Of a DNA stretch of 64,000 bases, positions 36,700-45,968 are shown one piece after another (position 1 is the stretch's first letter; each line of letters starts with the position of its first letter). The stretch comes from Patescibacteria group bacterium (GTDB lineage Bacteria > Patescibacteriota > Patescibacteriia > JAHIZJ01). The stretch is from NCBI GenBank assembly GCA_028714495.1, contig JAQTMH010000004.1:64232-128231 (forward strand). The letters run 5' to 3'. The notes beneath the pieces were generated by a model. The model had not been told where the DNA came from. It did no database searches and saw nothing but the letters and a program-made list of their open reading frames with translations. The position numbers were made by a program, and so were the translations under genes.

Positions 36700-37071
36700 A
36701 GCAAGCATTCAATATTTGCCAAGCGGACTCGAAAGGGTCCGTTTTGGTTTAGATACTATTGTAGATTTGTTCCGTTCCCGCAATTTCAAATTGCGGGAAC
36801 GATTTAATGCCCCGTTTTTGAATTATCGTTTAGCCGATGAAAAAATATTTCTCGAGCGAAGTTGAGAGATACTTTAATGTATCTCTCCATGCCCCAGCCA
36901 GTCGCGACTGGCTGGGTTAGTCGAGAAATAATATTAATTTCTTAAACAGCCCCGTTTTTGGTTTATGAAAAATTCTTGACAATTCTCCAGATTTAAAATA
37001 AGGTGATGGTGTTTTCGGAAAGTCGAGGAAGAGTTGATTAACAACCTGTTCTTTAGAGGGAGGGACTGATC

Positions 37072-37698
37072 ATGACCTGGAAGGTGATTTCAGTGGTTCT
37101 GGCCTACGCGCTCAGTCTAGCCGGCTTTGCGCTCATTCACACGCCGAAGCCGAGCATTTGGTTTCTTGCCGGATTGACGTCCTACCTGTTGTACTTCCTC
37201 GTCAAGCAATTCAACCCGGCCGACATACCAGCCAGTCGCCAACTGCTCTGGCGCGGCAAGTCGGTGGTGGGCTGGACAATACTGGCTGGCGTATCGTGCA
37301 GCACCTGTTTGCTTCTGCCGCTCCTTATCTTCACGGCACAGTTCGGGGCGATCAAGGATTGGGTAGACGCCCTACCACTGCTGTATTCCTTAACAGCCAA
37401 TTTGATCATCTCGCTGGTGAGCCTCTACAGTGTAATCGGCTTTCCCGTTTGTACCTTTGTGGCGCTGGTCATGATTCTCCTGCCGACCAAGATTCTCGAG
37501 ACTCCAGGCAAGGTAACAATCGATCATGATTCTCTCTGGGGAGAAACAAGGACGGTCGGAAAAACCTTCTCTGAACAGTCGAAGGAGTGCCGGTGGATAG
37601 CGCTCTACGGCAATCCGGTCGGATTCCTGTACTGGGTGATCCGCGCGCTTTGCCGGTTCAGACTTCAGCGGGCTCTGGGTGTTGGAATCAGCGCTTGA
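37072..37698 (+). CDS. hypothetical membrane protein, GC-rich singleton
   Basis: GAGGGAGG SD and multiple TM segments. A terminator GCGGC..GCCGC+TTTTTTT lies at 37744..37776. Confidence 0.5.
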   Translation: MTWKVISVVLAYALSLAGFALIHTPKPSIWFLAGLTSYLLYFLVKQFNPADIPASRQLLWRGKSVVGWTILAGVSCSTCLLLPLLIFTAQFGAIKDWVDALPLLYSLTANLIISLVSLYSVIGFPVCTFVALVMILLPTKILETPGKVTIDHDSLWGETRTVGKTFSEQSKECRWIALYGNPVGFLYWVIRALCRFRLQRALGVGISA

Positions 37699-37851
37699 CT
37701 CCAACTTTCAGCACCAATGCCCTTTCATCTCCGGAAACGATATCCGCGGCTAGGCTAAGCCAAGGCCGCTTTTTTTATCCAGACTTGCTTTTTTTCGTAA
37801 AATCGTGTATAATATAGACGATTGAAAAAAGATACCTAAATAAAAGCAAAA

Positions 37852-38370
37852 ATGTCAGACAAAAACCAAGATCAAAGCAATCAAGAAACAATTAAAACCG
37901 AGAAAGAGGTTCCCCCAGAAGCTGTTTTGGCCGGTCAGCCATTGAGCGTTTATTTCAAGGCGATCATCCGGCCAGTTTTTATATCAATCGCCCTGCTCGT
38001 TTTATCAGAATTCACTGAGACATTGCCTTATTTGGACTGGATTGTCGCTTTTGGCCTATTTTGCTATGTTGGCTGGCGCTTTGTTAGTAAAAAAACCACC
38101 GATACTCTCCAAGCAGTAGTCGCGGGTGGACTGGCCGGGAGCCTTTTGGGCCTGAGCGTCGCGCTGTTTCGTTTCATTGTTCATCTTAATGTCACAAGCT
38201 TCTTCCAAATAATTACTGAGCCGATTACCTATGCCATAATCGGCATGCTGACTGCCGGGGTGATCTATTGGTGGTCGCCAAAACAAAAACCCAATTCGAA
38301 ATCTTTAATTAAAAAAACAGTTAACCAAGAAGTCTTCCGGCTAATTCAATCCGGTCGGAGGCTTCCCTAG
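37852..38370 (+). CDS. hypothetical membrane protein
   Basis: 172 aa, 4 TM. Confidence 0.5.
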   Translation: MSDKNQDQSNQETIKTEKEVPPEAVLAGQPLSVYFKAIIRPVFISIALLVLSEFTETLPYLDWIVAFGLFCYVGWRFVSKKTTDTLQAVVAGGLAGSLLGLSVALFRFIVHLNVTSFFQIITEPITYAIIGMLTAGVIYWWSPKQKPNSKSLIKKTVNQEVFRLIQSGRRLP

Positions 38371-38381
38371 GAGAAAGATTT

Positions 38382-38681
38382 ATGCCAAACGAAAAACCAG
38401 TAACGAGTCAAGACGACAAGCTGATGGGCGCGTTGTCCTATCTGTGGATTTTGAGCGTGGTTATGCTCGTCATAAAAAAGGACAGTGAATTTGTGAAATT
38501 TCACGCTCGACAGGGATTAATTCTTTTTATCGTATCATTTTTATGGTTCATCCCGGTGGTGGGCTGGATTGTAAACTTAGCTGTTCTCCTTATGATAGTC
38601 ATTGGATTCTTTAAGGCTTACTCGGGCGAAAAATGGGAAATGCCCGTGATCGGCGCCTTGGCCAAGAAAATAAATTTATAA
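38382..38681 (+). CDS. small membrane protein (DUF4870-like, FHARQG motif)
   Basis: 99 aa, 2 TM. Confidence 0.5.
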   Translation: MPNEKPVTSQDDKLMGALSYLWILSVVMLVIKKDSEFVKFHARQGLILFIVSFLWFIPVVGWIVNLAVLLMIVIGFFKAYSGEKWEMPVIGALAKKINL

Positions 38682-38741
38682 ATCTTAGCAATAACTTTTA
38701 AATTACGGGCCGCCTTAAACGGAAGGCCTTCGTGAAATCTT

Positions 38742-41156
38742 ATGCCGAAAACCAAGGGCAAAAAATTAATTTTGTGGTTTAAAGAAATCCGCAAAACTGA
38801 CGTAGGTTTGGTCGGCGGAAAAAATGCCTCGCTGGGAGAAATGTATCGCTTCCTAACTCCGCGAGGCGTTTTAATTCCAAACGGATTTGCCACCACCGCG
38901 TCAGCTTACCAAATTTTCTTGAAAGAGGCGGGGATAAAAAACGAAATCAGGAAAATTCTCGAGCAAACGAACATCCATAATATCCAAAGCCTGATGGCCG
39001 GCGGCCGAAAGATCAGAGAAACGATTTTACGGGCGGAATTTCCCAAGAAGCTGAATGAGCAGATCATCAAATCATACCGCCAGTTGGAGAAAGAGTTTGG
39101 CCGGAATTGCGATGTGGCGGTCCGCTCTTCGGCCACAGCCGAGGATTTGCCTGATGCCTCATTCGCGGGCCAGCAGGAAACCTTCCTCAATACTCGGGGT
39201 CCCAAGGAACTTTTGCTGGCTTGCAAGAAATGTTATGCCTCGCTCTTCACCAACCGGGCGATTTCCTACCGTCAAGACAAGGGTTTTGACCACTTTAAAA
39301 TCTCGCTTTCCATCGGTGTCCAAAAAATGGTCCGATCGGATTTAGCCGCCTCCGGGGTTATTTTCACGCTCGACACCGAGAGCGGGTTTAAAGACGTGGT
39401 GCTGATTAATAGCTCATACGGTTTGGGCGAGAACGTTGTCCAGGGCAAGGTTAACCCTGATGAATATTACGTATTTAAGCCGACATTGGCTAAGGGCTAT
39501 AGCGCGATCATCTCCCGGCACCTTGGCAATAAAACGCCGAAGATGATTTACAGCAAGAATCCGGCAAAGCCCACGGTTGACGTACCGGTCAGCGAAACGG
39601 ATCAGGCAAAATTCTGCATTACCGATCGGGAGGTATTGAAGCTGGCCAAATGGGCGGTGATAATCGAGGAACATTACCAGCGGCCGATGGACATCGAGTG
39701 GGCCAAGGATGGACAGACCGGCAAGATGTTTATCGTCCAGGCCCGGCCCGAAACAGTCCAATCGCAGCGCGATTATTCGGTACTGGAGGATTATCGTCTC
39801 GCTCGCCGAGGCAAGGTTTTGATAACCGGTTCGCCAGTCGGTTCAAGAATCGGCGCCGGCACGGCTAATGTCATCAGAGACGTAAAAGATATCAGCAAGT
39901 TTAAAAAAGGCGAGGTCCTGGTTACGGACATGACTGATCCGGACTGGGAGCCGATTATGAAGATTGCCTCGGCCATTGTCACAAATCGGGGCGGCCGGAC
40001 TTGCCACGCGGCGATTGTTTCACGCGAGCTTGGCATCCCCTGCATCGTCGGAACTAAAAATGGCACGCAGAAAATAAAGACTGGCCGTCAGATCACGATT
40101 TCCTGCGCCGAGGGCGAGATCGGCTATGTTTATGAGGGTCTTTTGAAATTCACCGTTAAGAAAACCAGCATTAAAAATTTGAAACGCCCGAAAACCAAGA
40201 TCATGATGAACCTGGGCGATCCGGACCAGGCGTTTGAATACAGCTTCATACCGAATGACGGCGTGGGTTTGGCGCGTGAGGAATTTATCATCAATTCGTT
40301 TATCAAAGTCCATCCCGGCGCGCTGCTCAACTTCGGCCGGTTAAAAGACCCCAAGGCCAGAAAGATTATCACTAGCCTGACTAAGGGCTATCCGAGCAAA
40401 AAACAGTATTTTATTGATCGGCTTGCCTCAGGTATCGGCATTATCGCCGCGGCGTTCTATCCCAAGGATGTGATCGTCCGCCTCTCGGATTTTAAAACTA
40501 ATGAATACGCCAATCTCATCGGCGGCCGGCAGTTTGAACCGGTGGAAACCAATCCGATGATCGGCTGGCGCGGCGCTTCCCGGTATTATGATCCGAACTT
40601 TGCCGCGGCTTTCGGACTGGAATGCCTGGCCCTAAAAAAGGTTCGCAGCGATATGGGTTTGACTAACGTGAAGATAATGGTGCCTTTCTGCCGAACCGTG
40701 GAAGAGGGGAAAAAGGTTTTGGCTGAAATGGCAAAATACGGCCTGGTTTCTGGAAGAAATGGACTGGAAGTCTACGTGATGTGCGAGATTCCCTCAAACG
40801 TGATACTGGCTGATGATTTTTCAAAGATCTTCGACGGCTTCTCTATCGGCTCGAACGATTTGACCCAGCTCACGCTCGGTCTGGATCGCGACTCGCAATT
40901 GGTCAGCCATATCTATGACGAGCGCAACCCGGCGGTTAAAAATTTAATTGCCGAGGTTATCCGCAAGGCTAAGAAGAACAAGCGGAAAATCGGCATCTGC
41001 GGCCAGGCCCCGTCGGATTATCCCGAGTTTGCCCGATTTATTGTCGAGGAGGGCATTGACAGCATGTCGCTCAACCCCGATACCGTGATAAAGACCACTC
41101 TGGATATATTGAAGCTGGAAAAGAAATTAGGTGGCCGGCCAAAGAGAAAAAGATAA
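38742..41156 (+). CDS. ppsA: phosphoenolpyruvate synthase (pyruvate, water dikinase)
   Basis: PEP-utilising enzyme mobile domain GGRTCHAAIVSRELGIPCIVG, 804 aa. Confidence 0.85.
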   Translation: MPKTKGKKLILWFKEIRKTDVGLVGGKNASLGEMYRFLTPRGVLIPNGFATTASAYQIFLKEAGIKNEIRKILEQTNIHNIQSLMAGGRKIRETILRAEFPKKLNEQIIKSYRQLEKEFGRNCDVAVRSSATAEDLPDASFAGQQETFLNTRGPKELLLACKKCYASLFTNRAISYRQDKGFDHFKISLSIGVQKMVRSDLAASGVIFTLDTESGFKDVVLINSSYGLGENVVQGKVNPDEYYVFKPTLAKGYSAIISRHLGNKTPKMIYSKNPAKPTVDVPVSETDQAKFCITDREVLKLAKWAVIIEEHYQRPMDIEWAKDGQTGKMFIVQARPETVQSQRDYSVLEDYRLARRGKVLITGSPVGSRIGAGTANVIRDVKDISKFKKGEVLVTDMTDPDWEPIMKIASAIVTNRGGRTCHAAIVSRELGIPCIVGTKNGTQKIKTGRQITISCAEGEIGYVYEGLLKFTVKKTSIKNLKRPKTKIMMNLGDPDQAFEYSFIPNDGVGLAREEFIINSFIKVHPGALLNFGRLKDPKARKIITSLTKGYPSKKQYFIDRLASGIGIIAAAFYPKDVIVRLSDFKTNEYANLIGGRQFEPVETNPMIGWRGASRYYDPNFAAAFGLECLALKKVRSDMGLTNVKIMVPFCRTVEEGKKVLAEMAKYGLVSGRNGLEVYVMCEIPSNVILADDFSKIFDGFSIGSNDLTQLTLGLDRDSQLVSHIYDERNPAVKNLIAEVIRKAKKNKRKIGICGQAPSDYPEFARFIVEEGIDSMSLNPDTVIKTTLDILKLEKKLGGRPKRKR

Positions 41157-41336
41157 ATAACATCAGAAGAAATATACGGCTTCCCGAGCGTAAAAACTCG
41201 GGAAGTTTGTTTATCAATATAGTACTCGCTGACGATTTTTTGAGTATTGACATTTTTGATAAAATAGTCTACCTTTTTAACTGCCTGTAATTTGGTGTGG
41301 AAGCGGCTTCAAAACCACTAGGAGGACGTAGCTAAA

Positions 41337-41636
41337 ATGGCATATGGCGATCAGACACCAGCGAGGGTCTCCAAGGTGCGCCTGGATGGTGTACTAGGTG
41401 AACAGTCGGTCAGAGAAACGAGGCGGCCGGAGGAATGGAATGATGTATTGAGCACGGTTCAGCTGCGCTCAATCGGCGATGGCCGGGTTCATGTGCGCAA
41501 TATCTGCGGTGATGTCCGAGTGGACGGCCAGCGGATCGGCGCAGCCCAGAGCATCACGCTCGAACCCGGGGCCCACTTCCAGGTGAATGGCCTGGTTGGT
41601 CAGATCATCGATCGGGCTCCCCACAGACCTTCGTAG
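41337..41636 (+). CDS. hypothetical protein, GC-rich singleton (weak FHA-like pattern)
   Basis: AGGAGG SD. A terminator hairpin lies at about 41650..41710. Confidence 0.45.
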   Translation: MAYGDQTPARVSKVRLDGVLGEQSVRETRRPEEWNDVLSTVQLRSIGDGRVHVRNICGDVRVDGQRIGAAQSITLEPGAHFQVNGLVGQIIDRAPHRPS

Positions 41637-41821
41637 TACGACTTCCACACGCTTACCCCGACCCCGTACCAGTCGCTAACGCTTCGGTACAGGGTTCGGG
41701 GTTCTTTATTTAATGAGTATTTTCAGTTATAGTGAGTATAGTTTTAGAGAGGTCGTCCCGGAATAAATCCGGGACAGGTGCCATGGTCTCGTGTGCTACA
41801 TTAGCAGAACGTGTATGGAGC

Positions 41822-41908
41822 GGAGGCGTGCCAGAGCGGTTGAATGGGCGTCCCTGGAAAGGACGTATACCCGAAAGGGTATCAGAGGTTCAAATCCTCT
41901 CGCCTCCG
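41822..41908 (+). tRNA. tRNA-Ser (anticodon GGA)
   Basis: Acceptor GGAGGCG/CGCCTCC, anticodon loop CUGGAAA, long variable arm UAUACCCGAAAGGGUAUC, T arm AGAGGTTCAAATCCTCT. Confidence 0.85.
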
Positions 41909-41999
41909 CCCCATATATGTTTGTGAATCCATGCCCCGTCTCTCTGCCCTAGCGCGGGTTCGCCTCCGCCAGTTAAAAAGAGTTTTAGATATTTAATTA

Positions 42000-42398
42000 T
42001 TGGCTAGAAACAGAATGAAACACGCGTTGAAAATTTTCGGTTACGGTTTTCTTCTATTCATTATAACGATGGTTCTTTTGTTCCTTCTCTCGATGATCAC
42101 TGGTTCGGATTCACCGGTGGGTTTTTGGTGGGTTGGGGTAGTCTTAGCGATTATCATGACAGCCACATCTTTTTGGTTTTCCCGTGGTCTGCACCCGGCC
42201 ACAGCCAAACAGGCGTTTTCTCTTGGATTAACCTGGGCAATAATGCTGGCTGGGTTTCTCCTCGTCATTGCCATTCCCAATGGTACGACTGATATCGTTT
42301 TTGGCAACTGGAGCACATACCTGGTCTTTGTTGGGGTAGCGGTCGGACCAGTATTTATGAAGCCGAGGCCGGTTGCGCCTAATACAAAAATGCAGTAA
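42000..42398 (+). CDS. hypothetical membrane protein
   Basis: 132 aa, 4 TM. Confidence 0.5.
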   Translation: MARNRMKHALKIFGYGFLLFIITMVLLFLLSMITGSDSPVGFWWVGVVLAIIMTATSFWFSRGLHPATAKQAFSLGLTWAIMLAGFLLVIAIPNGTTDIVFGNWSTYLVFVGVAVGPVFMKPRPVAPNTKMQ

Positions 42399-42407
42399 GA
42401 ATATTCA

Positions 42408-42436
42408 CGAGCGCAGGCACGGAGACCTGCGCTCGG
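42408..42436. repeat. REP-like GC-rich hairpin CGAGCGCAGG-CACGGAGA-CCTGCGCTCGG
   Basis: 10-bp stem. Copies at 44641..44667 and, inverted-core, 45286..45311. Related units at 44890..45060. Confidence 0.75.
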
Positions 42437-42438
42437 AG

Positions 42439-42819
42439 ATGAAAACAACACTCTTATTAAATATTATGAAACTCTTCAAATCTACTATCATCTTTTTCTA
42501 CCTCATTGCCGCTTTTTGGATTGCCTTCGGCGTGATGTGGCTGTTTCAAGAGTCGGATTACCGATGGTTCTACTTTACCGGAGCGCTTAGTAACGCAATC
42601 ATGCTGGCTATTTTGACTTATCTCATGAGCCGCGGCCGGAAATGGGCATATTGGTTGTTAGTCATTCTTCTGGCTTTAAATATTATTTTGACGATTACCG
42701 ATCAGATCGGCTGGTTTGACCTGGCGTATCTGGTGCCGGCTGTGGCGGCATTTATTTTGATTTTGAAGGTGAAAAAAGAAGTGACTACGGCAAAGAGTGA
42801 AAAGCAGATTATTAAATAA
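42439..42819 (+). CDS. hypothetical membrane protein
   Basis: Start taken at MKTTLLLNIM. 4 TM. Confidence 0.5.
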   Translation: MKTTLLLNIMKLFKSTIIFFYLIAAFWIAFGVMWLFQESDYRWFYFTGALSNAIMLAILTYLMSRGRKWAYWLLVILLALNIILTITDQIGWFDLAYLVPAVAAFILILKVKKEVTTAKSEKQIIK

Positions 42820-42829
42820 TTAGAAAAAA

Positions 42830-43090
42830 ATGAATGAAAGAGGACAAGAAAACCCAATAGAAAGAGAAGGCGGCGGCATTGAGACTGCCACCTCGTTTGA
42901 CGAGCTTTACGTGGCAATCCGCGCGCAAGGAAAAATAGTCGGTTCGCGAGAGGAATATGAGCCAGAAGAAATTATCGATCTCATCGAGGGTGTCAGGCTC
43001 GGCGGTATCAGATTAAATTATGTCACGCGTAGCAACGGCATTAGGGATGCAGTGAGACGCCTACTCCAGGTAGAGAAACCGGGGGAGTAG
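42830..43090 (+). CDS. hypothetical protein
   Basis: 86-aa ORF. Confidence 0.4.
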   Translation: MNERGQENPIEREGGGIETATSFDELYVAIRAQGKIVGSREEYEPEEIIDLIEGVRLGGIRLNYVTRSNGIRDAVRRLLQVEKPGE

Positions 43091-43162
43091 TGTGATGGGG
43101 GTGGGGGTTGGGGTGAGGAAAGAACACGTATATAGATTTATTGGTGATAAACACTAATAATT

Positions 43163-44188
43163 ATGGATTCATCTCTGATTAGTAAAAAGGTGGTAAAAGT
43201 ACATGCACATTGTTTATTTCCATTAAGCACTAATGGAAAATATTCTTTTAAATTCGGCAGTTGGAAGCTCATTGAACACAATAATTTTATTGCGATATTT
43301 GAAACTAATATTGATATTAATAACCCTGAATTACATCGAGAGTATTACAAATTATTAAATAAATTAGAATGTATTTTATCTGCTGTATATCTTATTGATT
43401 TTATACCAAAGAGAATTGATTATTTTGAAATTGAAAAATTATCTGATCTTACTCGTAATGAGCAGATACGACTAGTGACGATATTTGGAAACAAGCCTTT
43501 TGTACCAACAACCATAGAGCACGAAGCCCACAGATCATTTAGTAGTATGGGTATGGTGCATATGTTTTTAAAAGCGCAGCGGGGTATTAATTATTCGGCG
43601 CCAACTCAAGATATAAAAACATTGTATGAATTTTTGAATGAGCATACAAACATAGCAAATAGTACAGGGTTAATTCGAGAGGGATATTGGAATCTAAACT
43701 ACTTAAATCAAAACCAATTATATGGTTATTTTAACGAGTATTCCCTACGAAGCGCAATATTATTAATTGTATCAGGACTTGAGAATATTTTTACAAAAGG
43801 GGCAAAGCAAGAGATAATTTATCAATTCTCGACCATTGGGAGTATTTATTATGACAGATTTGTAACAAATGATTATTTTAATCAATTTGATAACGTAAAA
43901 AAAATACCATCAAGAGATTTCAGAATAATATTAAAAAAATTATATGATATTCGTTCGGCGATTGCCCACGGTAGCAGTGGTTTTCTCGGAAGTAAAATAA
44001 AGGAGACTAACGAAATATTTTGTAGAATGGGTATGCGTCAGGTTCAATATAAAAATATTCAGCTTTTAAGAGCTAATGCATTAATGTTATTTTCATTCCT
44101 TCAACCGCATATTCACGGAATTATAGTTCAAGCAAAAGAGAAATTAAGTATGGGGGGAGAGATAATCGAAGATACATTTATCAATTAG
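43163..44188 (+). CDS. HEPN-domain protein, abortive-infection-like putative RNase (AT-rich foreign gene)
   Basis: C-terminal LYDIRSAIAHGS contains the R-x4-H HEPN catalytic motif. Marked AT-rich composition relative to neighbours. Confidence 0.5.
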   Translation: MDSSLISKKVVKVHAHCLFPLSTNGKYSFKFGSWKLIEHNNFIAIFETNIDINNPELHREYYKLLNKLECILSAVYLIDFIPKRIDYFEIEKLSDLTRNEQIRLVTIFGNKPFVPTTIEHEAHRSFSSMGMVHMFLKAQRGINYSAPTQDIKTLYEFLNEHTNIANSTGLIREGYWNLNYLNQNQLYGYFNEYSLRSAILLIVSGLENIFTKGAKQEIIYQFSTIGSIYYDRFVTNDYFNQFDNVKKIPSRDFRIILKKLYDIRSAIAHGSSGFLGSKIKETNEIFCRMGMRQVQYKNIQLLRANALMLFSFLQPHIHGIIVQAKEKLSMGGEIIEDTFIN

Positions 44189-44244
44189 TGATTTGTTTCG
44201 AAATACGTATCAATACTGATTAAACTTATAAAAACATTATTATT

Positions 44245-44601
44245 ATGAAATTCATTAAGTCGTCAGATAAACCCTGGGAGGAGAAAAAGGGGTATAGCAA
44301 GAAAATCTTTCTTGATGAAGAAGATTTGCATACGCCAGGCGCGCGTATTCAACTGATAAAAATCAAACCGAAGGAAACGGCGAAAAATCATTACCATAAA
44401 AAGCAAACGGAAATTTCTTATTTCCTAAATAACAACGGATTTTATATTGTTAATGGTATAAAGCAGCAAGTGGAAGCAGGCGATGTCATTGTTATCGAGC
44501 CCAATGATCGGCACGAAGTGGTTAATAATACTAATAGTGATTTCTTGTATGTTGTTTACAAGCTTAATTATGCCGAAGACGATCTTTTTTGGGGAAAATG
44601 A
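44245..44601 (+). CDS. cupin-domain protein
   Basis: HYH...E...H pattern (KNHYHKKQTEISYF ... PNDRHEV). Confidence 0.65.
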   Translation: MKFIKSSDKPWEEKKGYSKKIFLDEEDLHTPGARIQLIKIKPKETAKNHYHKKQTEISYFLNNNGFYIVNGIKQQVEAGDVIVIEPNDRHEVVNNTNSDFLYVVYKLNYAEDDLFWGK

Positions 44602-44701
44602 TAATGACGTGTCGAGTGCGTTGAGGGCTGATATCGACATCGCGCAGGCACGGAGACCTGCGCTCGGCGGCTATCCTAAATAACATTAACAAATAAAAAT
44701 C

Positions 44702-44884
44702 ATGTCAAACTGCTTCCAAAAAGGCGGATCAGCTGGCGCGGTCTATGGCCTGGGCTTGATCGGCGCAGCTGTTTATTTTATCGGCCACGCGGGGGGTTTT
44801 TGGATCGGCGTGCTCGGATTTCTCAAAGCGCTGGTTTGGCCGGCCATGCTGGTTTATCGCGCGCTCGAGGTTTTGTATCAATAG
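44702..44884 (+). CDS. small membrane protein (60 aa)
   Basis: Gly-rich TM hairpin. Confidence 0.35.
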   Translation: MSNCFQKGGSAGAVYGLGLIGAAVYFIGHAGGFWIGVLGFLKALVWPAMLVYRALEVLYQ

Positions 44885-44889
44885 GGCTC

Positions 44890-45060
44890 GGGTGCGCCCA
44901 ACGAGAGCGCGGGCACAGACCCGCCCGCATTGCTTCACAACGCGAAGTGGGCGGGGACCCGCGCTCGGAGGATAATAATTATCCTATCGTGGGGGCGCGG
45001 AATTGAAAAAACACATCGCGCACCCGCGGAGGGGCGCGCTCGGAGGATAAAAATTATTCC
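44890..45060. repeat. cluster of REP-like GC-rich palindromes (BIME-like)
   Basis: Contains CCCGCCC..GGGCGGG, GGATAATAATTATCC and two CGCGCTCGGAGGATAA units. Confidence 0.7.
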
Positions 45061-45074
45061 ACCGTTCAAATCGA

Positions 45075-45353
45075 ATGACCCAACGAAGAATTTATCAAGA
45101 CGAATTCCCGTATTTCGTAACATTTCGGACGGCTGGGGACAATCCGTTTTTTGAAAACGCGAAATACGCCGCATTATTGTCGGATATTATATTCGAGGCG
45201 GGAAAATTGAAAGGATTTGACGTTTTATCGTACCAAATCATGCCGGATCACTTACATTTATTTACTCAAAAAACCCAAACCGACCACCGAGCGCAGGCCT
45301 CCGTGCCTGCGCGTACATCGAAAACGGATCGCGCACCCCGTTTTTTACTATAG
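45075..45353 (+). pseudogene. truncated REP-associated tyrosine transposase (RAYT, IS200/IS605 TnpA-like), disrupted by a REP hairpin
   Basis: HUH motif QIMPDHLHLF at residues 56-65. The ORF ends at 92 aa before the catalytic Tyr region. The REP-like hairpin 45286..45311 sits at the break. Confidence 0.6.
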
Positions 45354-45475
45354 GCACGGGAAATCCCAGAAAATATATCTTGTTGGTATAAAGTATTAAA
45401 GGGTATAGACAAGGAATTTATATAAAAGTAAAAGCCCCAAGGAAAGTATCCATGGGGCTTCGAACGAGCTGTTGA

Positions 45476-45838
45476 TCAGATCCCGTTGGTAGGGGGCCTG
45501 ATTTCGTAATCGTCGGGACTAAAGGTTGCGCCGATTACCCGCTTGGTGATCGGATGTATCCGGCATTCGATCATCGTTCCGTATCTGATCTGCGGAGCGC
45601 CGGTTCGAACCTCGAACGGGGGAGGCTTCATAGTGAAACACCGATGTTGCGTACCGGACGATTCCGGAATGTTGATGAACAGAATGAACTTCGGATCGCT
45701 CATCGGCCCCACTTCCCAGCTGTCCACGAAGCCGCTCTTCTGGATTGTGAGCTGAGGAATAACATGGGGCGCGACCATGACGACCACACACAGCGCCGCG
45801 AACAGAACGAGCAATATGACAACTCTTCTCATGATCAT
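45476..45838 (-). CDS. small secreted hypothetical protein, GC-rich singleton
   Basis: AAGGAGG SD then MIMRRVVILLVLFAALCVVV signal-like N-terminus. Confidence 0.5.
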   Translation of the reverse strand: MIMRRVVILLVLFAALCVVVMVAPHVIPQLTIQKSGFVDSWEVGPMSDPKFILFINIPESSGTQHRCFTMKPPPFEVRTGAPQIRYGTMIECRIHPITKRVIGATFSPDDYEIRPPTNGI

Positions 45839-45968
45839 CCTCCTTTGCAGACATCCGATTGAGTGCCAGTTGATAGTAACGAGCCATATTACCACAATGG
45901 ATCGTATTTGTCAAGGGTTTATATGTGGTATTATATATTTATAACGTAAAATTATTAAATAATTAATT

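Follow-up and report, generated by a model that had tools for sequence, protein, structure and literature searches.

A rare two-domain protein family with a putative HEPN-type active site at a strain-variable Patescibacteria locus

Does an AT-rich gene downstream of a tRNA-Ser in a Patescibacteria genome encode a ribonuclease of the HEPN superfamily, and would such an enzyme act on its own or as one component of a larger defense island? We addressed this question in the window (the whole 64-kb stretch of DNA that was analyzed), in which a first-pass annotation had described a 341-aa protein with a C-terminal RSAIAH motif as a recently acquired, abortive-infection-like HEPN protein that may work with adjacent membrane proteins or a cupin. 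An identical protein from a Patescibacteria MAG carries the name "HEPN domain-containing protein" in NCBI.

The locus and its strain-specific segment

Downstream of the tRNA-Ser, the window carries genes for two small membrane proteins, then an ORF of 86 aa and the HEPN-like gene, and beyond them a gene for a Cupin_2 protein (E = 1.9e-11), a membrane ORF of 60 aa, and an IS200/RAYT-like ORF that is truncated (Y1_Tnp match, E = 6e-4; coordinates in Table 1). The 64-kb window contains three copies of a REP-like, GC-rich palindrome of 26 nt, GCGCAGGCACGGAGACCTGCGCTCGG, none of which lies outside this locus. The tRNA-Ser, both membrane proteins, the 86-aa ORF, the cupin, and the REP/RAYT remnants listed in the first-pass annotation were thus all found in place. 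The HEPN-like gene has a GC content of 0.305, vs. ~0.48 in the 6 kb on each side, and GC contents of 0.37, 0.29, and 0.25 at its three codon positions; neighboring genes have third-position values (GC3) of 0.50-0.62, which bears out the earlier remark on its AT-rich codon composition. Because the drop is largest at synonymous sites, it is not merely an amino-acid effect. The cupin gene is also AT-rich. Upstream of the HEPN-like gene, a G-rich tract, (TGGGGG)x3.3, marks the junction between GC-normal and AT-rich sequence. Promoter and terminator scans at the locus returned nothing beyond shuffled expectation, and a search near the gene for Rfam RNAs, a tandem-repeat partner, a structured RNA, or an RNA antitoxin found none but the tRNA.

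We compared the window by blastn with a sister Patescibacteria MAG (GCA_028717285.1, locus L027) of ~95% nucleotide identity, which is collinear with window positions 36949-42810 and 44246-45262. The intervening strain-specific segment of the window holds exactly the orphan 86-aa ORF and the HEPN-like gene, and in the junction alignment the window has ATTATTA at both ends of it. The sister keeps the tRNA-Ser, both membrane proteins, the AT-rich cupin, the 60-aa ORF, one REP element, and a RAYT that is intact at 173 aa; there, the stop codon of the 117-aa gene (TM117) overlaps the TTG start of the cupin gene. The GC3 of 0.25 together with the absence of the gene from a 95%-identical sister points to a recent foreign acquisition of the HEPN-like gene, in agreement with what had been proposed from its composition. 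What changes is the extent of the variable unit: the island had been drawn from 41822 to 45353, and only the segment differs between the two genomes, the rest being kept in the sister.

We also considered a tRNA-integrated genomic island and rejected it, since the ORFs scanned at the locus include no integrase, no tRNA-derived direct (att) repeat was found there, and the variable segment begins 900 nt downstream of the tRNA-Ser.

Table 1. Positions in the window of the HEPN-like gene, its parts, and the features around it
Feature	Position	Strand	Basis or remark
tRNA-Ser(gga)	41821-41911		Upstream of the HEPN-like gene
Strain-specific segment (indel), 1,435 nt	42811-44245		Only 6 nt in sister locus L027
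Orphan 86-aa ORF, GC 0.50	42830-43090	+	Within the 1,435-nt indel
G-rich tract, (TGGGGG)x3.3	43096-43115	+	Tandem Repeats Finder and sequence
Gene for the 341-aa two-domain HEPN-like protein	43163-44188	+	ORF, 23 full-length homologues of ~335 aa, AlphaFold model
N-terminal alpha/beta domain, about aa 1-144 (to ~135)	43163-43594	+	DSSP of AlphaFold model
C-terminal all-helical domain, aa 145-341	43595-44185	+	AlphaFold model, weak HEPN_Apea match
Codon of invariant Glu207, candidate second active-site residue	43781-43783	+	23/23 sequences
Putative catalytic motif Y261-D-I-R264-S-A-I-A-H269-G270	43943-43972	+	Invariance in 23 sequences, helix-end position, hhalign

Family loci and the partner question

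We scanned 1.84 billion representative proteins exhaustively with HMMER and retrieved 30 relatives of the 341-aa protein with E<=1e-3, about 23 of which are full length (~335 aa). The closest, at locus L001, is 50% identical, and the 90% clusters examined are all singletons with no informative names. GTDB species genomes returned only this known 50% homologue, plasmid, phage, and viral-contig collections returned no relatives, and a word-indexed search with the family alignment added no further members. Judged from these searches, the family is very rare and previously unannotated. Its CPR hosts are those of the window, L001, and L018 (which clusters with Candidatus Shapirobacteria); non-CPR bacteria are probably among the hosts as well, as suggested by a 2.6-Mb contig, by a locus set among genes for lysine biosynthesis, and by a label that reads "Spirochaetia."

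At all 11 independent loci, the family gene has a lower GC content than its flanks; at five loci the gap is 14-20 points. Two GC-rich hosts carry family genes with a GC3 of ~0.6, so that AT-richness is not intrinsic to the family.

A second lineage, which we defined as genomes with a GAPDH at least 90% identical to that of L012 (a locus on an 841-kb contig), provides another natural comparison. Its genomes share the gene order GroEL...PGK-GAPDH-X-PEGA/SH3-UbiA-GT4, in which the content of position X varies. L025, L026, and an 835-kb contig have nothing but a tRNA-Cys (+) there; L012 has the family gene (+, GC 0.32) and a tRNA-Cys (-); and L023, L024, and others have a gene for a double-motif LAGLIDADG homing endonuclease (-, GC 0.35) and a tRNA-Cys (-). 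The insertion site of L012 thus hosts a selfish gene elsewhere in the lineage. The GAPDH stop codon is the exact point at which synteny is lost. With the family gene as the sole cargo of the L012 insert, it can exist without a partner gene, and the protein must tolerate solo expression. These patterns are best explained if the family gene is accessory and is transferred laterally between genomes in a very small piece of DNA, which holds the gene alone in the L012 lineage and the gene with the orphan 86-aa ORF in the window. Flanking cassette or MITE-like repeats, or an upstream element shared across family loci, were not found.

Whether the protein has a partner is the point at which a toxin-antitoxin reading has to be weighed, according to which the 86-aa ORF would encode the antitoxin to a HEPN-like RNase and the pair would have been gained as a unit. 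The indel holds these two genes and no others, 72 nt apart and on one strand, and relative to the sister the 86-aa ORF is the one gene whose presence changes with that of the HEPN-like gene. Antitoxin-type genes adjoin the family gene at two other loci (UPF0175, directly upstream in L015, E = 3.6e-19; a HicB-like gene in L016), and toxins of the Fic/Doc type are found nearby at two more (HTH_17+Fic in L001; Fic/Doc with a BrxC/D-like AAA ATPase in L011). The 86-aa ORF itself, however, is an orphan that forms a singleton cluster with no Pfam, PDB, or PHROGs match; tblastn at the ten other family loci retrieved no homologue of it, nor of the cupin or the membrane protein TM117, and its GC content of 0.50, vs. 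0.305 for the HEPN-like gene, argues for separate histories. At L012 the insert is the family gene alone, and at L019 the family gene directly follows RmuC, which lies 3 nt upstream; as neither has an adjacent small gene, a cognate antitoxin is not a general requirement. We therefore regard a two-gene toxin-antitoxin system as unlikely. The stricter case of a HEPN-MNT or type II system with a conserved cognate antitoxin was rejected across the family loci: none has a nucleotidyltransferase (MNT), and the small genes that adjoin the family gene (the orphan of 86 aa, one of 129 aa, UPF0175, and the HicB-like gene) are non-homologous.

The remaining neighborhoods are heterogeneous, with GIY-YIG at L009, NUDIX, MazG, and HD genes at L018, and housekeeping genes at L012 (GAPDH/PGK) and L016 (dapA/dapF). 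No conserved partner gene was found across the family loci, and PADLOC identified no complete defense system among their neighbors, its matches being limited to a generic one for RmuC and weak ones for ATPases. Enrichment of the homologues in defense islands is not established; the most fitting description of the family loci is that of variable regions in which genes of the toxin-antitoxin type are common.

The R-x4-H site and the predicted fold

RSAIAH (aa 264-269, nt 43952-43969) is the sole R-x4-H, and indeed the sole R-x4-6-H, in the 341-aa protein. When the protein is shuffled with its composition preserved, 39% of the shuffles contain an R-x4-H; the motif alone is therefore weak evidence, and only its invariance across the aligned family gives RSAIAH meaning. 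This alignment comprises 23 sequences with pairwise identities of 18-61% (median 29%), in all of which P82, G109, E207, F222, Y230, Y261, R264, H269, G270, and H316 are invariant; S265 is present in 21 of the 23, and A268 is at least 90% conserved. The most conserved block, L-Y-x-[IL]-R-S-x-[IV]-A-H-G, includes RSAIAH, and a second, L-L-V-S-G-L-E-x-[LI]-F, holds the invariant Glu. Conserved residues of the N-terminal domain are D79, P82, F88, and G109.

We modeled the protein with AlphaFold2 and the family alignment, both at full length (pLDDT 89.7, pTM 0.90) and as the separate C-terminal domain (pLDDT 90.3). According to DSSP of the model, the N-terminal domain consists of strands 10-18, 34-39, 43-51, and 84-90 and helices 57-79, 98-108, and 118-126. 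The C-terminal domain is predicted to contain four long helices (162-185, 192-210, 250-268, and 299-323) with shorter helices inserted between them, placing E207 in helix 192-210 and H316 in helix 299-323. R264 to A268 form the last predicted turn of helix 250-268, and H269 opens the loop 269-273 (local pLDDT about 90-96), so that RSAIAH does fall in a C-terminal helical region, as had been noticed from the sequence.

In the published definition of the HEPN superfamily, the domain is a four-helix up-and-down bundle whose metal-independent RNase activity depends on the Arg and His of an R-x4-6-H. This motif is located at the end of core helix 3 and the start of the loop after it, and a conserved acidic residue from further upstream is positioned near it; the residue after the Arg is polar, typically N, D, or H, and helical inserts between the core helices are common (PMC3710099). 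The family shows R264 and H269 in 23 of 23 sequences, the polar Ser265 in 21 of 23 (outside the typical N, D, and H), a motif that is predicted to span a helix end and the loop that follows, and Glu207, invariant in helix 192-210, as a candidate for the upstream acidic residue by its sequence position. Profile searches point in the same direction at low scores. Nothing in Pfam, NCBIfam, PADLOC, or PHROGs matches the 341-aa protein above threshold, and PDB sequence and profile searches with its family found no match, but in a survey of weak matches to 24,736 Pfam and 5,027 PADLOC models the only recurrent ones are HEPN-containing models. The best Pfam match of the C-terminal consensus is HEPN_Apea (E = 4.8e-4, 21.0 bits, cut-off 24.4), which is also matched weakly by 3 of the 23 members and scores 13.8 bits, below the 24.4 cut-off, with the 341-aa protein itself. 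One member, P0011, matches HEPN_RiboL-PSP (E = 2.3e-4, 21.6 bits, cut-off 28.4), and PADLOC models for Csx1/Csm6 (CARF+HEPN; 8.4e-5) and CARF_HEPN (0.033) match one member each, below threshold.

An alternative to a HEPN domain is a helical protein of novel fold, in which the conserved Arg, His, and Glu would serve ligand or nucleic-acid binding or another catalysis and the R-x4-H would be convergent or coincidental. Foldseek searches of the PDB and BFVD with the full-length and C-terminal models gave no significant match, HEPN structures included, and the N-terminal domain has no Pfam match as a consensus and no Foldseek match as a model. That confident models lack a structural neighbor among HEPN structures, that every HEPN profile match is sub-threshold, that an alignment to ApeA (below) is not significant, and that a bare R-x4-H is frequent in shuffles are all in keeping with this alternative. 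The full signature, however, fits the definition above (R, H, polar residue at +1, helix end, and upstream Glu), and the recurrent weak matches come from four different HEPN-containing models and from no unrelated family. Foldseek is moreover weak on divergent helical bundles. Even the link between the HEPN domain of ApeA and HepT took a specialized aligner (bioRxiv 10.64898/2026.01.26.701840). A non-HEPN protein is thus rather improbable in our judgment. Judging by its conservation pattern, the 341-aa protein very probably carries an active site of the HEPN type, and it is a probable member of the HEPN superfamily that we assign to none of the named HEPN families. We infer a HEPN fold, which the structure search did not confirm. 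The earlier idea of a HEPN RNase accordingly stands in part: it is backed by the invariant motif and Glu, the helix-end site, and the weak HEPN profile matches, but Foldseek recovered no HEPN fold.

Proposed activity and comparison with known systems

We incline, by a modest balance of belief, to the view that the gene encodes a cytoplasmic, self-contained, conditionally active HEPN-type RNase and is a conflict gene of the abortive-infection or toxin type, comparable to ApeA. The steps that we propose are modeled on characterized HEPN proteins, ApeA included. The helical C-terminal domain would dimerize and form a composite R-x4-H active site, a metal-independent RNase site of the pattern Glu207 ... 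Tyr261-x2-Arg264-Ser-x-Ile-Ala-His269-Gly270, in which E207 and S265 may assist catalysis. The N-terminal domain, which we propose to be a sensor or regulatory domain, would sense a signal or autoinhibit the enzyme until stress or infection; once activated, the enzyme would cut cellular RNA (tRNA, rRNA, or mRNA) and cause growth arrest, which could serve abortive infection or gene-level selfishness.

Two further alternatives are far less probable. One is a multi-gene island at the tRNA-Ser, in which the HEPN protein would cooperate in defense with the membrane proteins and/or the cupin, as the first-pass annotation had suggested: the genes are adjacent on the same strand, the cupin shares the AT-rich composition, and a homologue of the 132-aa membrane protein, TM132 (50% identity), precedes the closest family member by ~0.9 kb, at L001 only. 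The sister nevertheless keeps the membrane proteins and the cupin without the HEPN-like gene, so that a defense module with them is not supported, and the absence of the cupin, TM117, and the 86-aa ORF from the ten other family loci and of an integrase or tRNA repeat from this one argues the same way. The other, a housekeeping RNA-processing enzyme of the host, would suit the settings of L012 among GAPDH/PGK and L016 among dapA/dapF but is contradicted by the extreme rarity of the family, its singleton clusters and foreign composition, and the absence of the gene from close sister genomes in two lineages.

A bolder form of the favored RNase reading, which we consider possible but doubtful, is a minimal single-protein abortive-infection system, in which an unprecedented N-terminal sensor would gate a divergent HEPN RNase and the gene would spread by naked single-gene insertion into intergenic hotspots. 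On this account, the hotspots lie next to tRNA genes, are interchangeable with homing-endonuclease genes, and occur in CPR and other uncultivated lineages. Patescibacteria are episymbionts with tiny genomes, and their immune repertoire is almost unknown. If the single-protein account is true, the family would be among the first defense or conflict genes defined from CPR genomes and not from model bacteria. Should the protein prove to be an active RNase that regulates itself, it would represent a new architecture of HEPN conflict proteins, with a sensor-like domain and a divergent HEPN domain in 341 aa. The two natural presence/absence polymorphisms offer clean, isogenic-like comparisons, and the small size of the protein eases heterologous testing. 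What is new here is an unmodeled family with a HEPN-type signature and a new N-terminal domain; HEPN families are known to be numerous, and another one would not surprise specialists.

Several known HEPN systems resemble the family in part. HepT/MntA (HEPN-MNT), a minimal HEPN toxin of type II toxin-antitoxin systems, and RnlA/LsoA are R-x4-H RNase toxins encoded at mobile, strain-variable loci, and RnlA and LsoA are ~350 aa long with a C-terminal HEPN domain, resembling the 341-aa protein in size and in the position of that domain. The family loci differ in having no MNT nucleotidyltransferase and no RnlB/LsoB-like partner, and Foldseek found no structural match to the PDB entries of HepT/MntA and RnlA/LsoA. 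The weak matches to HEPN_RiboL-PSP (PF18735) and Csx1/Csm6 cover the region through the R-x4-H, but no family locus has a CARF domain, a CRISPR context, or an L-PSP partner.

The closest comparison is with ApeA, a single-protein HEPN anti-phage system with an abortive-infection phenotype (Ec1-Ec4ApeA; Pfam HEPN_Apea, PF18739). It is a tRNase that cleaves the anticodon loop and is switched on when a ligand binds in the pocket that separates its N-terminal domain from its HEPN domain (bioRxiv 10.64898/2026.01.26.701840). The DNA fragments in the supplement of the ApeA preprint led us to the complete Ec1ApeA and Ec2ApeA in E. coli genomes, and neither of these validated proteins reaches E<=0.01 against Pfam HEPN_Apea. 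Given so insensitive a model, a score below the cut-off is compatible with kinship, and the number of divergent HEPN effectors is probably underestimated as a result.

Membership of the ApeA family itself was rejected. The PADLOC ApeA model matches neither the 341-aa protein nor any of the 23 members, family profiles found no match among the ApeA chains in the PDB sequence set, and 341 aa do not accommodate the three-domain architecture of ~580-600 aa. Ec2ApeA and Ec1ApeA are 583 and 601 aa long, with a helical N-terminal domain, a Mid domain, and a split HEPN_ApeA domain, whereas the 341-aa protein has a 145-aa alpha/beta N-terminal domain; ApeA also has an insertion of ~75 aa between its Glu helix and catalytic motif that the 341-aa protein lacks. 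An hhalign comparison of the family C-terminal domain with a 31-sequence ApeA-clade alignment is not significant (E = 0.035, probability 1.5%) and aligns the catalytic motif only, placing the RSAIAH motif of the family on the ApeA catalytic IYRTRNLIVHTG. On an extended hhalign path, E207 pairs with the Glu of ApeA "WIALESL," and the Glu helices are collinear apart from the ~75-residue ApeA insertion.

The likenesses lie in the site and in the way the gene occurs. The catalytic stretches of ApeA read IYRTRNLIVH in Ec2 (R502 being the mutated catalytic residue) and IYKVRNKITH in Ec1, so that both families present Y-x2-R-[NS]-x-I-x-H in a C-terminal helical domain, preceded in the same order by an [AG]-L-E-x-L helix ("WIALESL" in ApeA, "LVSGLESLF" in the family). 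No homologues are known for the N-terminal region of either, a lone gene can occur without a partner in each case (the family gene in L012), and both are found in mobile or variable contexts.

Repeats, tract and cupin gene at the window locus

Within the 64-kb window, a 26-nt REP-like palindrome is confined to the locus of the HEPN-like gene. The IS200/RAYT-like gene at this locus is truncated to 92 aa and carries a REP copy at its break, versus 173 aa and intact in the 95%-identical sister genome (L027); the two sequences diverge across window 45263-45947 and L027 8019-8339. Two Logan contigs (L005 and L006), independent short-read assemblies of the window organism that correspond to the window from 41874 onward, begin within tRNA-Ser, and one of them stops at the REP copy near window 44641. 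These contig ends are assembly breaks at repeated elements and do not count as evidence for excision.

The tract (TGGGGG)x3.3 sits on the precise boundary where the GC-normal 86-aa ORF gives way to the AT-rich HEPN-like gene. It could be a scar left by recombination, a regulatory element or a G-quadruplex element. The cupin gene is AT-rich as well (GC 0.36 in the window and 0.35 in the sister genome). Because both genomes have it, it must have been acquired earlier or independently, and was not co-transferred with the HEPN-like gene.

Features at the window locus, at loci of homologues and at the E. coli ApeA loci
Feature	Locus	Positions	Strand
G-rich tract (TGGGGG)x3.3	window	43096-43115
REP-like 26-nt GC-rich palindrome	window	42411-42436	+
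REP-like 26-nt GC-rich palindrome	window	44642-44667	+
REP-like 26-nt GC-rich palindrome	window	45287-45312	-
Degenerate relatives of the palindrome	window	44951-45065
IS200/RAYT-like gene fragment	window	45075-45353
Intact RAYT	L027	7831-8352
Cupin gene	window; L027	44245-44601; 7001-7357
NUDIX hydrolase genes with NDPSase_N domain	window; L018; L013	47600-48169; 2464-2958 and 4167-4697; 930-1460
GAPDH-PEGA/SH3 intergenic site	L012; L023; L025	7867-9089; 5096-5908; 5087-5273
Two AT-rich orphan genes directly upstream of the closest homologue	L001	7220-7902
Perfect 17-nt inverted repeat AAAGTGACAGTCACCTT / AAGGTGACTGTCACTTT	L015	1730-1764
Fic/Doc, 289-aa and AAA ATPase genes adjoining a GC-normal family member	L011	5034-8854
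Validated ApeA gene (E. coli)	L021	2501-4252
Validated ApeA gene (E. coli)	L022	2501-4306

Intergenic hotspot and neighbours of homologues

One lineage has a hotspot at the GAPDH-PEGA/SH3 intergenic site, which is found in three states: empty, occupied by the HEPN-like family gene, or occupied by a gene for a double-motif LAGLIDADG homing endonuclease (GC 0.35 versus 0.47). The adjoining tRNA-Cys is on the + strand when the site is empty and on the - strand when either gene occupies it, and the segment therefore seems to have been exchanged or inverted along with the tRNA.

Beside the closest homologue (L001), the orphan genes encode 96 aa (GC 0.25) and 129 aa (GC 0.31). The 129-aa protein, which contains RNARYYPH (R-x6-H) and has no match in Pfam, PADLOC or PHROGs, might itself be HEPN-like. 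At another family locus (L015), the inverted repeat separates the family gene from a UPF0175 antitoxin-like gene, and could serve as operator or terminator. At L011, a 696-aa AAA ATPase that has a BrxC/BrxD-like region (Pfam E=3e-5), an unknown 289-aa gene and a convergent Fic/Doc gene may form an uncharacterised defence cluster.

In two unrelated contexts the family gene has NUDIX hydrolase genes nearby, and the window and L018 proteins share 32% identity. In L018 the family gene has a NUDIX gene on either side, and MazG and HD genes come after it. The proximity may be fortuitous or may reflect a connection with nucleotide metabolism.

Comparison with ApeA

Ec1ApeA and Ec2ApeA, both experimentally validated, gave no match to Pfam HEPN_Apea at E<=0.01, and RefSeq labels Ec2ApeA 'hypothetical protein'. 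Ec2ApeA is surrounded by baseplate and tail genes of a P2-like prophage, and Ec1ApeA is flanked by an IS2 element on one side and a MobQ relaxase gene on the other.
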